This document shows positions 27,540 through 34,377 of a stretch of DNA of 60,094 nucleotides, piece after piece. The stretch lies in the sequence record PZ445424.1. One strand, written 5' to 3'. Both the position numbers and the translations under genes were made by a program. Every line of letters starts with the position of its first letter. Within the stretch, counting starts at the first letter, position 1. Origin of the DNA: a phage. The notes below the pieces were generated by a model that did no database searches, had not been told where the DNA came from, and saw only the letters and a list, made by a program, of their open reading frames with translations.

Positions 27540-27766
27540 TAGCGATCCTCGATTGCTCTAATTGTGGTTAAATCTAATTCACAGGTTGGAGGGTATCCAT
27601 AAAGTCCCATTTGTTTTCCTTGTGCATTAAACCATGTGCCTGACGGATCCTGCCACTGCTTGGGTGTCTTGTGGAGAAATACTACTCTGTTTTCACCGTA
27701 ATAATTAATTCTTACGCCTGTGTGAGTATATTTACGTTTACCTTTTGGTCTTCTTAAGTTAGCCAT
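27539..27766 (-). CDS. Hypothetical protein
   Basis: 75 aa basic ORF immediately downstream of DpdA-like gene. Confidence 0.4.
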   Translation of the reverse strand: MANLRRPKGKRKYTHTGVRINYYGENRVVFLHKTPKQWQDPSGTWFNAQGKQMGLYGYPPTCELDLTTIRAIEDR

Positions 27767-28686
27767 CAGAACAACTCCATTACACGATCACGGAATGTGC
27801 CGTCATGGGTAGCGTTAATGTTTGCAGCAATTACACCATACGCCCATAAGTTGAAGGCAGCACGTGATTCATAGATTGTTGATAAACGTTCGTAAGTGAA
27901 ACCGTTTTGCTCAAGGTATTTAAGGACAGCGTCTTGTTCAATTTCAGTTAATGTTGAAACATGCTTACCAAAATGATGGCGGTCCGGTGACTTATCAGAT
28001 ACGCGCATTGGACCCCACGGAGGAGTAACCACACTTCCAAACGCAGCCGCTTGAATCCAGGAGGATGAGTCACAGCTATACCACGGATAACGCTCCATGA
28101 TGGTAGTGGACGTAATACCAAATGCATGAAGCTTAATCTTAGGGCGACCGCTACCATCGCAAATGTATTTGTCCCACATGCGGTCCAACCAAGTTTTAAG
28201 CGTGTCCGTGGAACGCCCTACCATGCCCCCAATCGTGATATATTCGTAGTTCTTCATGTAGTATTCAAGATAGCGGAAGTCCTCCCCAAAGTGAAAGCAC
28301 GGTAACGGTTTAGCACCGCGTGCTTCCATTTCAAGCTGGTTACGGTATGTTTGCAGCGGATCACCGATACCGTCGAGCACTGACGCCATTACAGCACCAT
28401 CTTCTACGCGAAGGATGTCTTTGTTGCGCTTGATGTATTCGCAGTATTCAACAATATCAATGTGAGCACCCAAAGAGTGCGCAGAGAATGCACCGGAGTC
28501 GAGAAACACTTTAGCCCCATCCGCACGCATTTGATCAACATACTTCTGACGTCCAACGTAGTGGTATGATTCCAAAATATGGGGCAGATTGCGCGTGATA
28601 TTTTTCTCATGCTCAGACAGCTTTTCATAACGCTGCTGTCCAGGCATATATCCGTTTGTGTAAACTGCTGCCATAAAAACGTTCAT
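27766..28686 (-). CDS. dpdA: DpdA-like DNA-guanine transglycosylase (TGT superfamily)
   Basis: 306 aa; VFLDSGAFS matches the catalytic-Asp DSGG(F)Q motif of tRNA-guanine transglycosylases; embedded among FolE/QueD/QueC/QueE genes; GGAG RBS. Confidence 0.65.
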   Translation of the reverse strand: MNVFMAAVYTNGYMPGQQRYEKLSEHEKNITRNLPHILESYHYVGRQKYVDQMRADGAKVFLDSGAFSAHSLGAHIDIVEYCEYIKRNKDILRVEDGAVMASVLDGIGDPLQTYRNQLEMEARGAKPLPCFHFGEDFRYLEYYMKNYEYITIGGMVGRSTDTLKTWLDRMWDKYICDGSGRPKIKLHAFGITSTTIMERYPWYSCDSSSWIQAAAFGSVVTPPWGPMRVSDKSPDRHHFGKHVSTLTEIEQDAVLKYLEQNGFTYERLSTIYESRAAFNLWAYGVIAANINATHDGTFRDRVMELF

Positions 28687-28967: not shown

Positions 28968-29609
28968 TTATTTACAAGCTTCGAGGAACTCCCGGCGCCA
29001 TTCTTTACCAATATTGCTACCATGCTCCAGTTCTGTAGCGCCCCGGAATGCTTTGGTAATAGTAGAGCTGCCGCATACCTGCTTGACCCCGCGCGACTCC
29101 ATACACATATGCTTAGCATCGATGTAAACGCACACAGCTTTCGGGTCTAAATGCTCCTGGATGGCATCTGCAATCTGGTTAGTAAGACGTTCCTGAACTT
29201 GCAGTCGACGACTAAAAGCATCAACCACGCGAGACAGTTTACTGAGCCCCACAATGCGACCGTTAGGAACGTACCCCACAACAGCACGACCAATAATGGG
29301 AGCCATATGGTGCTCGCAATGACTGTAAACAGGAATATCCCGTACAATAACCATTTCATTAGTATTTTCCGCCCCATCCTCAAAGGTCTTAAACAGCCCA
29401 GCAATATCTGCATCGTAACCGCTAAACCATGTAGCATAAGCTTTAGCTACACGATCTGGAGTCTCTGCTAATCCTGGACGTAACTCAATGCAATCTTCAA
29501 TCTGAGTTAGTAAAGTATGCACCGCGCGAGCAATACGGAATTGAGTACCTTCGTTATCAATAGTAAATTTTGGCATGGTTTGCAGTTTCCTTGTTGTTAA
29601 TGTGGTCAT
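28968..29609 (-). CDS. folE: GTP cyclohydrolase I
   Basis: 213 aa; canonical motifs [10 protein letters not shown] and [10 protein letters not shown]...RLQVQERLT. Confidence 0.85.
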
Positions 29610-29610
29610 A

Positions 29611-30126
29611 TTACAGGCTATAGTTTACGTGACATTTCGAAGTTTCTTCGATGGTGCATTCTACAAGTTGAACACCATGTTCGTCAAGCAGTTGCGGCCC
29701 AATCACGTTAACCATATATGCAGCTAAGTTTTCCGCAGTTGGGTTGAACGGCAGTGATACCAATGAACCTAAATAATCCATTTGATCCCGATGCGACATA
29801 TTGTCCATAGTTGTCGTATCTACAAATTTATTTAAGCTCTCAATGAGTTGATCATGCTCCCAATGCAGGAACTTATGATCCCAGTTGTTTTCCAGCCACT
29901 GGCAAAGTGTAGTCTTAACCACACTAAAGTCGATAACTCGCCCAACATCGTCCAGTTGCTTAAGGGACGCAAAGTCAGCTTCGTGCATGACTGTATAAGG
30001 AACTTTTGGTGCAACCTTAAAATGAAACTTATAGTTGTGACCGTGAAGATGACGGCACTTGCTTTCATGACCTACAACACGATGTCCGGCGCAAATTTCA
30101 TGTGAACGAATTACTGTATAGCTCAT
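29611..30126 (-). CDS. queD: 6-carboxy-5,6,7,8-tetrahydropterin synthase
   Basis: 171 aa; zinc-binding motif CRHLHGHNY and N-terminal CAGHR typical of QueD/PTPS. Confidence 0.8.
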
Positions 30127-30713
30127 TTTAATACCTCTTTAGACTGTTCGATTTCTAACGCACGCTGTGCGGATGCAATAATATCTTTCAAGTCTTCTAC
30201 CAGACTTTTATGACCGCGTTCGCCAGGCTGCAACGCCTTTTTAATCAAATGTTGTAAAGCTGGGTTAGTTGTTTTCCAAGCTTCCAAGACATCATACACG
30301 TCCACGATGCATTTTACAACATTTCCGTTTTCATCTTTACCATAAATAATTTTCTGATATTTATTCATGGGAATTTTAGATGGTTCGTATTTCGTAAAAA
30401 CTGCACCATTAAATGTATTACTTATGCTTATTTCACTAGAAGGTTGATGATACACTCCGGAGCGAGTATTTTCCCGGGCTTGTTTGACGTAATCATCCGC
30501 AACGATATATCTCCAGGCTATAATATCTTGAATTTTATAAGGGCTATTCTCATCCATAGCTGAACGCCCTTCTATAGCCCAGTCCCATCCATGTAATAGA
30601 TTCTTAACGTGTGTGCCGTTTCGCAAACGAACTTCAAACTTTTCATTGCGAAGAAAGATTGGCATTCCTTTCCCATCGTGCTGGTGCCAAATTTTATTAA
30701 GATTATCTTTCAT
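30123..30713 (-). CDS. Hypothetical protein embedded in deazaguanine cluster
   Basis: About 196 aa (start taken at ATG 30713, weak RBS); no recognisable motif; flanked by queD and the transporter gene. Confidence 0.45.
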   Translation of the reverse strand: MKDNLNKIWHQHDGKGMPIFLRNEKFEVRLRNGTHVKNLLHGWDWAIEGRSAMDENSPYKIQDIIAWRYIVADDYVKQARENTRSGVYHQPSSEISISNTFNGAVFTKYEPSKIPMNKYQKIIYGKDENGNVVKCIVDVYDVLEAWKTTNPALQHLIKKALQPGERGHKSLVEDLKDIIASAQRALEIEQSKEVLK

Positions 30714-30715
30714 TT

Positions 30716-31195
30716 TTACGCTCTCGCTGTACGTGAATGAACTTCGTAAACAACCCAAAGGATGGCAGATGCTGTGAACTTACTTAAGCTCATTGCTACC
30801 ATCGATCCTGGATTAACAATACCTATAATACTTAAGAACACAATGGAGTCAATCGGTACAGCTACCAAAGAGCTAATAAATACACGTTGATGAAACGGCT
30901 TCTTAGTAATCGTGTATACCGCATAGTCCGCAAACTCGCTAAGAGCAAAGGATGCAACGGATGCAACTACAACAGCAGGATCCCCAAATACCCAGCTAAG
31001 GATGCAACCCACAATCATTGCAGGAATAACGCCTTTGCCAGCGTTACGCTGTGCGTAGTCACGCAACACAAAGATAATACCTACAAAGAAAGCCATCATC
31101 GGGACTACGCCAAGAGGCGTATTGAGCATTGGAAGGTAGGAAAAGCCCAGGTTTACGAATGTAATTGCAGCCAGATAAGCGACGATAAATTTCAT
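30716..31195 (-). CDS. Queuosine-precursor transporter, YhhQ/DUF165-like membrane protein
   Basis: Start refined to ATG 31195 (RBS GGAGAA). Multi-TM protein; FFVGIIFVLRDYAQRNAG and VPIDSIVFL resemble conserved YhhQ segments (FLATDLTVRIFG, NVSDTLAFF). Confidence 0.55.
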   Translation of the reverse strand: MKFIVAYLAAITFVNLGFSYLPMLNTPLGVVPMMAFFVGIIFVLRDYAQRNAGKGVIPAMIVGCILSWVFGDPAVVVASVASFALSEFADYAVYTITKKPFHQRVFISSLVAVPIDSIVFLSIIGIVNPGSMVAMSLSKFTASAILWVVYEVHSRTARA

Positions 31196-31315
31196 ACTTT
31201 TGTTCTCCAGTTTTAACAGCGTTATTCGCTGGTTGTTGGGTTTAAAAGCTTTAGTAGTATAGTTGGGTTCCCGCACCCTAAACAATGCGCTAGCGGTGCG
31301 GTTTTCTTGGTAAGA

Positions 31316-32023
31316 TCAAGCTTTGCTAATAAATTCGCTGTACCCTTTAGCACGCAGTTTGCACGCAGGACATTCACCGCAACCATAACCCCAGTCATGC
31401 AGAGTACGACGGACGCCGTTATAGCAAGTATGGGACTGTTCAATTACTGTGGTTAAGAAGCCAACCTTATCCGCCAGCTCAAACGTTTCTGCTTTATTTA
31501 AACGCATAAGCGGGGTAACGAAATGAATATCTGTTTCATATCCAACGTTTAACGTAGCTTCAAGCAAGTCTACAAACTGCTGGCGGCAATCCGGATAACC
31601 GCTATAGTCTGTTTCACAGACGCCTGTAACCACATATCGGGCACCAACTTTCTGCGCGTAGGCGTGCGCGGTAGTCAGGAAAAGAGCATTACGGTTTGGC
31701 ACAAAGCTTGCTGGAAGGTTGTTGTGCTGTTCGTGATGTTCGTTAACATCACCTTCGTTCCCAATTAAAGCGCTATTGCCAATCTGTTTCAAAGCAGGTA
31801 ATTCAAAGACAACAAATGGGACATCGTGCTCTTTACAAATTTGATTAGCACAAGCCAGCTCAATGTTATGACGTTGACCGTATGCAAAACCAATAGCGTA
31901 GACCTTATCATAGTTATTAAGGGCAAGACCCAAACAGGTCACGCTGTCCTGGCCGCCAGACAGGACGACAACGGCGGAGTTATGATTTTTTACAGGGAAT
32001 ACCAGTTTATCTAACTTATTCAT
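31316..32023 (-). CDS. queC: 7-cyano-7-deazaguanine synthase
   Basis: 235 aa; PP-loop VVLSGGQDSVTC; C-terminal zinc motif CGECPAC; not fused to an amidotransferase domain. Confidence 0.85.
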   Translation of the reverse strand: MNKLDKLVFPVKNHNSAVVVLSGGQDSVTCLGLALNNYDKVYAIGFAYGQRHNIELACANQICKEHDVPFVVFELPALKQIGNSALIGNEGDVNEHHEQHNNLPASFVPNRNALFLTTAHAYAQKVGARYVVTGVCETDYSGYPDCRQQFVDLLEATLNVGYETDIHFVTPLMRLNKAETFELADKVGFLTTVIEQSHTCYNGVRRTLHDWGYGCGECPACKLRAKGYSEFISKA

Positions 32024-32418: not shown

Positions 32419-32676
32419 TTAAACCTCCGTTAATGTTTGAGTCCAGTCTAAGCCTTCAAGGTCTACATCAGCTATTTCATCGTACTCGTAAGCTCCCGGA
32501 TCTGCTGGCAGCCATCTATCAAATCGATGGCTGAGTTCTGGAGGAATTGCTTCATACCCCCAAACCTTCCCATCCTTGTCGGCTGCTAGATAATCAACTC
32601 GACTTGGAACGGTTAAAGTGACACCACAAAAATTAACATCTTTAGTATGCACAACCTGACTTAACACACGCATCAT
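32419..32676 (-). CDS. Hypothetical protein (paralog of 54548-54847)
   Basis: 85 aa; shares DGKV...Y.A.P and VDLEG-DW--TL-E motifs with the + strand ORF at 54548. Confidence 0.4.
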   Translation of the reverse strand: MMRVLSQVVHTKDVNFCGVTLTVPSRVDYLAADKDGKVWGYEAIPPELSHRFDRWLPADPGAYEYDEIADVDLEGLDWTQTLTEV

Positions 32677-33380
32677 TCAACCCCAATATATTTGTGAACC
32701 TGAAGCTGCAAAGTGTACCCGTGTTTCATACAGCTTTGGACAACGGCTTGGATATTACTGTGGTTAAGGTCTTCATCCTGCTCGTCCATTGGCTGTAAAT
32801 ATATCTTACCCTTGAACCCCTTCGGAGGTCTAGCGATAAATGGCGTAGCTTGATGATCTAATGCTTGAAGAGGTAAACCGTCTTCCACGTTTACACAGCA
32901 CGCTTTAAGTACATATTTAAATGCATTAGCTCGGTACAGCACAGAAGGATGAATCTTTGAGGTTTTAGGACTACATACAATCACAGGCAACTGTGAAAAG
33001 TTCTTAGGTAAAGGCATAGACCCATTAGTTTCAATCTGCACCAAATAGCCGCGCGATAACAGTTGTTCAATAAACGGGTTAATTTGCTGACGGAACGGTT
33101 CACCCCCAGTGATAACCACAAGTGAGGTGGTATTACCAGATTCCAACTTGCGGCTTTCAATTAAACGCATAATATCGACAATGTGATAAAGACTACGACC
33201 AACAGTATAATCTGTATCACAGCCCGGACATTGCAGGTTACACCCAGCAAGTCGCACAAATACAGCAGGTTGGCCGCAGAACGGACCTTCACCCTGAATG
33301 GTAGAGAATACCGAATGCACGTCTAAATACATATCGTTTTCTTTAGAACGAGACTCGGGAGCTTGTTGATTAATATTCAT
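32673..33380 (-). CDS. queE: 7-carboxy-7-deazaguanine synthase (radical SAM)
   Basis: 235 aa; CNLQCPGC (Cx3Cx2C) cluster motif and VVITGGEP SAM-binding motif; RBS AGAGGA. Confidence 0.8.
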   Translation of the reverse strand: MNINQQAPESRSKENDMYLDVHSVFSTIQGEGPFCGQPAVFVRLAGCNLQCPGCDTDYTVGRSLYHIVDIMRLIESRKLESGNTTSLVVITGGEPFRQQINPFIEQLLSRGYLVQIETNGSMPLPKNFSQLPVIVCSPKTSKIHPSVLYRANAFKYVLKACCVNVEDGLPLQALDHQATPFIARPPKGFKGKIYLQPMDEQDEDLNHSNIQAVVQSCMKHGYTLQLQVHKYIGVE

Positions 33381-33449
33381 CTTAAATCCTCTAGTGAAAA
33401 AGAAAGCGCCTCATTGGGCGCCTTCATTATAACGTGATATGTTTTGATA

Positions 33450-34250
33450 TTACAAGCCGTTCAAGGCTTCCGGTACTGGTACAGGTACGCGACCAGTCAC
33501 ACCATTAAATTTCTTCCAGCGTGCATACTGGGTTTTAACGGTATCTTCGTTCAGACCATGTCGACCAGCCAGGTTCAGAACATAAGAGATCGGAGCAGGC
33601 TGACCCAGCGTAGCGCTAATCTGGTCCATCAGAGCCCAAGCACGACCGCAGGAAGTTTCCGGTTGCGGACGACGAACACCGTTCTGTTCCGGCATACGAT
33701 TAGCTTCTTTTTCTTTCTCGCGGAGCTCTTTAGCGCGCGCTTTTTCCGCTTCTTTTTCTGCCTGTTTTGCAGCACGGATCTTGTCTTTGAAGCCTTTAAT
33801 AGTAGCTTCCAGACCATCCACCAGACCCTGAGCAGAAGTTACAGCACCAGACAGGTCTTCACCTTTAGACTTCTTAACGACAGCTTTCAGCTCTTTCAGA
33901 GCTTCTTTAATGGTCTTCAGGTTTGCAGATCCCTGAGTTTCTGCTTCCGTGATCTGTTCAACAGTGCTTTCGTCGGTGACGGTAGCCAAAGAGTTTTTCA
34001 GAATATCAGCAGCGTTAGCAATCGCATTAAATTTGTTTTCCGCTTCAATGCGGATTTCAGCTTGTTTCTTTTCAGCGGCAGCTTTTTTCTCTGCTTCTTT
34101 TTTCTCTTTTGCTACGCGTGCAGCTTCAGCAGCAGCGGCTTTCTTAGCTTCTGCGTCATTCACAGTAGCTTCTTTCTTTGCAGGTTTAGCAGATTTTGCA
34201 GCGGCAGCGGCGGCTGCGGCAGCAGCTTTTTTGTCTTCAATGTTGCTCAT
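33450..34250 (-). CDS. Ala/Lys/Glu-rich low-complexity protein with structured C-terminal domain
   Basis: Start refined to ATG 34250 (GGAGTG RBS). Poly-Ala run and KAAAEKK repeats encoded by GCN-rich DNA; the overlapping + strand ORF is an antisense shadow. Confidence 0.5.
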   Translation of the reverse strand: MSNIEDKKAAAAAAAAAAKSAKPAKKEATVNDAEAKKAAAAEAARVAKEKKEAEKKAAAEKKQAEIRIEAENKFNAIANAADILKNSLATVTDESTVEQITEAETQGSANLKTIKEALKELKAVVKKSKGEDLSGAVTSAQGLVDGLEATIKGFKDKIRAAKQAEKEAEKARAKELREKEKEANRMPEQNGVRRPQPETSCGRAWALMDQISATLGQPAPISYVLNLAGRHGLNEDTVKTQYARWKKFNGVTGRVPVPVPEALNGL

Positions 34251-34377
34251 TCTCTTCACTCCGAATTGTTATGGGTTCGTTTGTTACCAACGGGGTTAAA
34301 TGTACCAAAGGATTTTGTGACACGCAACCCCTTATCTGAACATTTTTAAAAATATTTTTGATCAAGCTTAGAACTTA

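Follow-up and report, generated by a model that had tools for sequence, protein, structure and literature searches.

A short, phage-borne Vut_1/YhhQ-like membrane protein encoded in the deazaguanine DNA-modification cluster of a Seuratvirus-like phage

Introduction

In Escherichia coli the salvage of preQ0 and preQ1 requires YhhQ, a protein of the VUT family of TCDB that is reported to have six transmembrane segments with the C-terminus inside, and whose host, strain K-12, has no ECF modules; the published alignment of the family shows little strict conservation (Zallot et al. 2017, PMC5372724). Substrate specificity varies within the corresponding orthologous group, COG1738, some members handling preQ0/preQ1 and others queuine (PMC11570991), and type III preQ1-I riboswitches are said to regulate yhhQ in gamma-proteobacteria (PMC10622847).

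Homologues of YhhQ were noted in some phages by Hutinet et al. 2019 (PMC6884629). Kot et al. 2020 gave the name yhhQ to the gene of phage CAjan and depicted it as another route to preQ0; deletion of folE, queC or dpdA in the same phage abolished or strongly reduced the modification of the DNA, while the ΔyhhQ mutant, in rich medium, carried dPreQ0 as the wild type does (PMC7544227). The gene is also discussed in the paper on phage Iggy, in which CAjan figures as the Queuovirinae representative with yhhQ downstream of queC (PMC10484667), and the paper on phage EC151 uses the keyword 'preQ0 transporter' and presents a phylogeny of it (PMC8310023). The dPreQ0 system shields the genomes of the Queuovirinae from restriction enzymes, and a phage-encoded importer, if such it is, would make environmental preQ0 usable besides what the phage synthesizes on its own.

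We have analyzed the homologous gene in a phage sequence of 60,094 nucleotides (record PZ445424.1; hereafter the window). Neither the gene nor its name or proposed role is new: the GenBank CDS bas23_0042 carries the product 'preQ0 transporter' and the note 'preQ0 transporter YhhQ', and several papers deal with it, so that for this genome nothing new is added by its identification, which had been made correctly from the raw sequence in a preliminary description of the window. The questions considered here are what kind of protein it encodes and how it compares with the characterized transporters. The reading that we favor, with a probability of roughly 0.6, is that the protein imports a 7-deazaguanine base that feeds the DNA guanine transglycosylase DpdA, where both the substrate and the direction of transport are points that we infer.

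Results and Discussion

The gene and its surroundings

The 5.7-kb stretch around the gene is 100% identical to Escherichia phage WildeMaa (MZ501112.1), which is the BASEL phage Bas23 of the genus Seuratvirus, subfamily Queuovirinae, and is matched at 90-95% identity by about 33 further Seuratvirus-like genomes. On the minus strand the order is queE, three small ORFs, queC, a gap of 120 nt, the transporter gene, an ORF of 196 aa, queD, folE, a small ORF and dpdA; the coordinates are collected in Table 1 together with those of related loci in other phages. The gene does lie between queD and queC, as first described, but it adjoins only the latter, 120 nt downstream of it, and is separated from queD by the 196-aa ORF. 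The ATG of this ORF is 2 nt past the TAA of the transporter gene, and its own stop overlaps the start of queD. It has no match in Pfam and no sequence match in the PDB, and its C-terminal ~100 aa are common to several other PHROGs of unknown function.

Table 1. Coordinates of the transporter gene, of the deazaguanine cluster that surrounds it, and of related loci in other phages (the latter given with the locus label).
Feature	Position	Strand	Basis and remarks
159-aa short-clade Vut_1/YhhQ-like membrane protein gene	30716..31195	-	GenBank bas23_0042, 'preQ0 transporter YhhQ'
Leader, 120 nt, from the queC stop to the transporter ATG	31196..31315	-	GGAG RBS 31208-31205; 7-bp GC-rich hairpin 31271-31301
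queE, radical-SAM 7-carboxy-7-deazaguanine synthase, first in the cluster	32673..33380	-	Pfam Radical_SAM + Fer4_12; annotated QueE
queC, 7-cyano-7-deazaguanine synthase, immediately upstream of the transporter gene	31316..32023	-	Pfam QueC E=9e-75; annotated
196-aa ORF between the transporter gene and queD	30123..30713	-	PHROG 23361, unknown function
queD, 6-carboxytetrahydropterin synthase	29611..30126	-	Pfam PTPS E=7e-21; annotated
folE, GTP cyclohydrolase I	28968..29609	-	Pfam GTP_cyclohydroI E=2e-64; annotated
dpdA, DNA guanine transglycosylase inserting preQ0	27766..28686	-	PHROG 887 E=2e-96; annotated DpdA
Unannotated DpdA, PS25B.1	L007:36105-36872	-	PHROG 887; abuts the transporter gene
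Unannotated DpdA, BUCT006	L008:2195-3001		PHROG 887; abuts the transporter gene
Unannotated DpdA, 1.173.O	L009:2195-3001		PHROG 887; abuts the transporter gene
Unannotated DpdA, Rhizobium phage RHph_X2_30	L011:3888-4577		PHROG 887; ~480 nt (two small genes) downstream of the transporter gene
Arthrobacter phage Aoka gp36-gp40	L005:3498-6446		PAPS-reductase-like (PHROG 424), gp37, Vut_1 membrane protein, QueF-like, DpdA

The ORF of the transporter gene is the one singled out in the preliminary description. It starts with the ATG at 31195-31193, separated from the GGAG ribosome binding site by a 9-nt spacer. A longer version of 189 aa with a TTG start at 31285, which appears in the mechanical list of ORFs, was dropped: the ATG is preferred because a ribosome binding site is present and because an ATG is used in all homologues and in the GenBank CDS.

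The 120-nt leader was searched for regulatory elements. A preQ1 riboswitch was not found in it, as no Rfam model of this kind matched at E<=10; the four matches obtained were at chance level, to unrelated families, with 8.7-14.3 bits against cut-offs of 40-101. The same scan upstream of E. coli K-12 yhhQ (L002:8900-9400) likewise gave no preQ1 riboswitch at E<=10, from which it follows that this riboswitch is not a universal feature of the yhhQ family; the 'Eco' riboswitch of the literature is presumably that of a strain or locus other than K-12 yhhQ. We had entertained the idea that the host gene is under a riboswitch feedback from which the phage copy is free, and we dropped it, since with both scans negative no such contrast between phage and host can be drawn. 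No sigma-70-like promoter was called in the leader, a consensus scan giving no more hits than expected from shuffled sequences, and nothing convincing as a terminator was recognized on the coding strand between queC and the transporter gene. Just past the stop of queC there is the inverted repeat CCGCACC ... GGTGCGG; read on the plus strand it precedes TTTTCTT and has a terminator-like score, in a place with no converging plus-strand gene, and a T-run is missing on the coding strand.

Farther upstream, between queE and a 269-aa gene, positions 33402-33455 (minus strand) hold a sigma-70-like promoter with 10 of 12 consensus positions (TTGTAA-18-TATAAT), with a strong terminator, a hairpin plus T-run, immediately behind it; together they are probably the 5' boundary of the transcription unit that extends from queE to dpdA. 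A weak, sub-threshold Rfam match to sraL (19.6 bits) overlaps the same positions. The 269-aa gene (33450-34259, minus strand), which stands directly upstream of the deazaguanine cluster, encodes a hypothetical protein with long low-complexity stretches rich in Ala, Lys and Glu.

Family assignment and selection

The phage protein matches the Pfam Vut_1 model (PF02592) with E=1.9e-5 and 25.5 bits, against a gathering score of 27.2; the match runs from aa 66 to 145, corresponding to model positions 58-140 of 152, and leaves the N-terminal half of the protein unmatched. The NCBIfam YhhQ equivalog TIGR00697, whose cut-off of 50.95 bits, when passed, implies the same function as YhhQ, is missed (21.7 bits, E=1.4e-4, aa 70-128 only). 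The resemblance to conserved YhhQ/DUF165 regions in the first description is, by these two models, above chance and weak. In PHROGs the protein is assigned to family 4899, 'unknown function', with E=4e-48.

Its membership in the superfamily emerges more clearly from its relatives. All 57 sequences of the clade and its bridging relatives match Vut_1 at E<=0.01, the best with E=2e-11. A relative 79% identical to the phage protein scores 27.7 bits, other clade members score 34-47 bits, and the range for the relatives as a whole is 27.7-47.4, while E. coli YhhQ scores 125. A phmmer search of a database of 5.8 billion sequences returned 118 relatives, among which are bacterial PF02592 proteins of 187-193 aa named 'queuosine precursor transporter' (E=1e-13 to 1e-7), which cover 63% of the query at 45-49% identity. 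Around the closest relative in bacteria (P0108), a chromosomal gene standing alone, there are no queuosine-related neighbours, so that its context is uninformative. In an alignment of 58 sequences that includes E. coli YhhQ the invariant columns are N15, D46, A78, S79, D90, S108, D116 and F120; E87 does not vary within the clade and its bridging relatives and differs in YhhQ. On these grounds we consider membership of the protein in the Vut_1/COG1738 (YhhQ/QPTR) superfamily very probable.

Orthology to YhhQ is a different matter. BLASTP against the 221-aa YhhQ of E. coli K-12 gave E=1.3, which is not significant, and an hhalign comparison of the profile of 45 clade members with an alignment of enterobacterial YhhQ gave only a weak match (E=0.019, probability 2.5%), to be read with the knowledge that all sequences in the latter alignment are >=87% identical to YhhQ, so that the canonical profile is not diverse. 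When the profile of the short clade was run against 1.84 billion cluster representatives it collected 1357 proteins at E<=1e-3, of which 96 had E<=1e-30, mostly 150-180 aa long, and did not reach the bulk of the family. Because of the missed thresholds, of the insignificant match to YhhQ, and of the reach and length distribution of the clade profile, the protein is best classified, as far as sequence comparison goes, as a member of PHROG 4899, a compact clade of short proteins carried mostly by phages, and not as a YhhQ orthologue. Of the original designation 'YhhQ-like transporter', therefore, the placement in the superfamily stands, upheld by the Vut_1 matches of all 57 sequences, by the phmmer relatives with E down to 1e-13 and by the location in a que/dpdA operon; the implied orthology does not, in view of the TIGR00697, BLASTP and hhalign results.

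With 159 aa the protein is some 60 aa shorter than YhhQ, and one may ask whether it is a truncated remnant, the product of a decaying or spurious ORF. Besides the length, the scores below the curated Pfam and TIGR00697 thresholds and the lack of a phenotype in the CAjan knock-out could be taken to point this way. The values of dN/dS, however, are 0.034 with respect to slur01, 0.058 with respect to GottfriedDienst and 0.110 with respect to Hafnia phage yong3, and 18 residues are invariant across 45 diverse members of the clade; because of these two observations the gene appears, from its pattern of substitution and conservation, to be functional. Furthermore, the length is steady at 150-180 aa over hundreds of cluster representatives, all six helices of the S-component fold described below are retained, and the gene has a good ribosome binding site in a tightly packed operon. 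A functionless remnant is thus an extremely improbable reading, already effectively refuted by purifying selection and clade-wide conservation. It can also be seen that the gene is under strong selection although in rich medium its loss from CAjan did not visibly alter the modification.

Predicted fold and topology

An AlphaFold2 model built on an alignment of 57 sequences has a mean pLDDT of 84 and a pTM of 0.70. It contains helices at 2-20, 38-70, 73-96, 101-124 and 129-158 and a beta hairpin at 23-32; we divided the long helix 38-70 at K54-G55, which gives six membrane segments. The distribution of Lys and Arg in loops and tails, 9 on the cytoplasmic and 0 on the periplasmic side, fits a predicted N-in/C-in topology, and this six-segment, C-in arrangement agrees with the topology of YhhQ in PMC5372724. 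The early characterization of the product as a multi-TM protein is confirmed by the six segments, the charge bias and the AlphaFold2 helices. In the model the six-helix fold of the S-components is present in full, and the protein is accordingly predicted to have the fold of the ECF/vitamin-uptake 'S' components. A Foldseek search of viral models (BFVD) returned a phage protein annotated as 'putative vitamin uptake transporter'; E. coli YhhQ and the clade and bridging profile, each compared with the sequences in the PDB, gave no meaningful match and no solved structure of the YhhQ family. Some of the invariant residues, N15, D46, D90, S108 and D116, with the addition of E87 within the clade, are candidate contacts for the guanine-like edge of a base.

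Distribution and genomic context in other phages

By tblastn a homologue is encoded in 77 phage records, with hosts that include Escherichia, Vibrio, Rhizobium, Aminobacter, Sulfitobacter and Arthrobacter, among others; Nonagviruses such as 9g are absent from the organism groups reported for these matches. A membrane transporter had at first been regarded as unusual cargo for a phage; with 77 phage records, an annotation in the GenBank record and several papers on the subject, this view cannot be maintained.

In the Vibrio podophages PS25B.1, BUCT006 and 1.173.O the 'hypothetical' gene directly upstream of the transporter gene, abutting or overlapping it, is a DpdA (PHROG 887, E ~1e-60, the values lying between 5e-60 and 2e-62). 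Over the four unannotated DpdA genes listed in Table 1, including that of the Rhizobium phage, the E-values for PHROG 887 range from 7e-39 to 2e-62. In PS25B.1 neither tblastn nor a Pfam search covering 47 of the 48 proteins detects a FolE, QueD, QueE or QueC; since the genes for preQ0 synthesis are missing from this genome, DpdA and the transporter may form in it a two-gene module for salvage and insertion. In Arthrobacter phage Aoka the Vut_1 protein (47.4 bits) is annotated only as 'membrane protein', and its QueF-like neighbor matches Pfam QueF with 29.5 bits; the cluster suggests a salvage-based DNA modification of preQ1 type or G+ type in an actinophage.

Other phages show a different arrangement. 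In RHEph06 (Kleczkowskavirus), Aminobacter phage Erebus and Vibrio phage 1.207.B the gene is located in the replication module, between a DUF669 single-stranded DNA-binding protein (SSB) and an exonuclease, and in several phages it is near SSB, HD phosphatase and exonuclease genes and not near deazaguanine genes; in RHEph06 and in Vibrio phage 2.117.O (a sister phage) DpdA is elsewhere in the genome.

Metagenomic relatives of the short clade occur as fusions (proteins P0242, P0245, P0353, P0325 and P0266; loci L013, L014 and L015). The partners are an HD dNMP phosphatase (PHROG 318, E=8e-59), a nucleoside 2-deoxyribosyltransferase-like domain found in both domain orders (PF05014 with 35.6 bits in P0353, by similarity in P0325) and a domain of PHROG 17812 to which no function is attached; one fusion was found on two independent contigs. 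These fusions hint at an import of bases coupled to deoxynucleoside metabolism, and perhaps at a wider salvage of bases for phage DNA.

Substrate and direction of transport

These results can be interpreted in terms of the following model. The six-helix protein would enter the inner membrane of the host during infection, with both termini predicted to be cytoplasmic, and would act by itself, as an S-component-like facilitator that needs no ECF ATPase module. It would bring in from outside the cell a free 7-deazaguanine base, preQ0 or possibly preQ1, and the imported base would top up the pool of preQ0 made de novo, which DpdA, the presumed consumer, exchanges for guanine in the phage DNA. What we infer in this model is the substrate, the direction of transport, that no other subunit is needed, and that the phage benefits. 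The host has its own YhhQ, and the phage protein falls below both curated thresholds; these are observations that weigh against the import model, and so do the insignificant direct similarity to E. coli YhhQ, the N-terminal half left unmatched by Pfam, and the variable specificity of COG1738. The claim originally made for the gene, that it scavenges precursor from the medium or the host pool, is not supported as stated; the sole experiment available, in CAjan, whose protein is 98.7% identical, found modification unchanged in the ΔyhhQ mutant.

The main rival to this model is a genuine transporter of the VUT fold with a substrate other than preQ0, for instance preQ1, queuine, a different nucleobase or nucleoside, or some small cofactor unrelated to them, serving the general metabolism of nucleotides. 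The clade is far from the characterized QPTRs, its profile reaching only the 1357 cluster representatives, and the fusions fit a nucleobase substrate in general, not preQ0 specifically; the position between SSB and exonuclease/HD phosphatase genes in Rhizobium, Aminobacter and Vibrio siphophages, and the absence of a modification phenotype in CAjan ΔyhhQ, go in the same direction. The genomic context, however, tells in favor of a deazaguanine: DpdA is present in every gene-carrying phage lineage examined, the gene stands next to dpdA, queC or a queF-like gene in at least 5 independent arrangements, and PS25B.1 possesses DpdA and the transporter gene with no genes for preQ0 synthesis. The recurrent linkage to dpdA, queC or queF-like genes is the strongest independent argument for a 7-deazaguanine substrate used by DpdA. 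We regard a different substrate as rather unlikely.

A second possibility is that the protein performs no useful import at all, and has simply inherited the fold: it might be an exporter, a retention device, a membrane anchor or sensor, or might act, for example, in superinfection exclusion. The unaltered level of modification after deletion of the CAjan gene would be explained in this way, and so would the carriage of the gene by a phage that makes preQ0 de novo in a host that has YhhQ. Against this, the polar and acidic residues inside the helices that are invariant and shared with YhhQ (N15, D46, D90, S108 and D116) fit a conserved substrate site, the characterized relatives are importers (PMC5372724, PMC11570991), and a phage with DpdA and the transporter only makes sense only if the protein supplies the substrate. 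Because of the strong selection and of that genome, a role other than import, like a dead gene, is unlikely; we consider the former improbable, more so than a change of substrate.

A further reading is that the short clade of PHROG 4899 is a distinct, minimal, stand-alone S-component-like importer of nucleobases, which together with DpdA alone constitutes a two-gene 'salvage-and-insert' module in PS25B.1, BUCT006 and 1.173.O. We put this forward tentatively, as a possibility with the odds against it; if it is correct, in de novo producers such as WildeMaa the real role or substrate of the protein could differ from the uptake of preQ0.

Comparison with known systems

With respect to the S-components of ECF transporters and to the solitary ones (YkoE, FolT, RibU, ThiT, BioY and BtuM; QueT/QrtT), the phage protein has an identity of only 5-14%, and none of the solved S-components was found at the sequence level by the clade and bridging profile. 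The EcfAA'T partner of the ECF transporters is absent from the phage and from E. coli K-12.

With E. coli YhhQ and the QPTR family (COG1738, PF02592, TIGR00697, TC 2.A.88) the phage protein shares the Pfam superfamily, the residues N15, D46, A78-S79, D90, S108, D116 and F120, a like predicted topology of six segments with the C-terminus inside, and the expectation of operating free of ECF modules (PMC5372724). The linkage to 7-deazaguanine genes is also common to both: the association with queuosine genes known for YhhQ/QPTR is found here as well, the phage gene adjoining queC in WildeMaa and dpdA or a queF-like gene in other phages. It differs from YhhQ in the insignificant pairwise similarity, in missing the TIGR00697 cut-off and in a Pfam match confined to the C-terminal half. 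It differs also in length, 159 versus 221 aa, being shorter because three regions are absent from it in a MAFFT alignment: the first 12 aa at the N-terminus, ~20 aa of the loop joining helices 3 and 4, and the tail at the C-terminus.

The yhhQ genes of CAjan, of the Seuratviruses and of EC151 are essentially the same gene as the one studied here, the protein being 98.7% identical to that of CAjan, 100% to those of Seurat and CSP1, and 65% to that of EC151. There is no substantive difference from CAjan and EC151, for which the function given in the literature is by homology only, and in these phages the gene occupies the same place, directly downstream of queC in the order queE-queC-yhhQ-queD-folE-dpdA.
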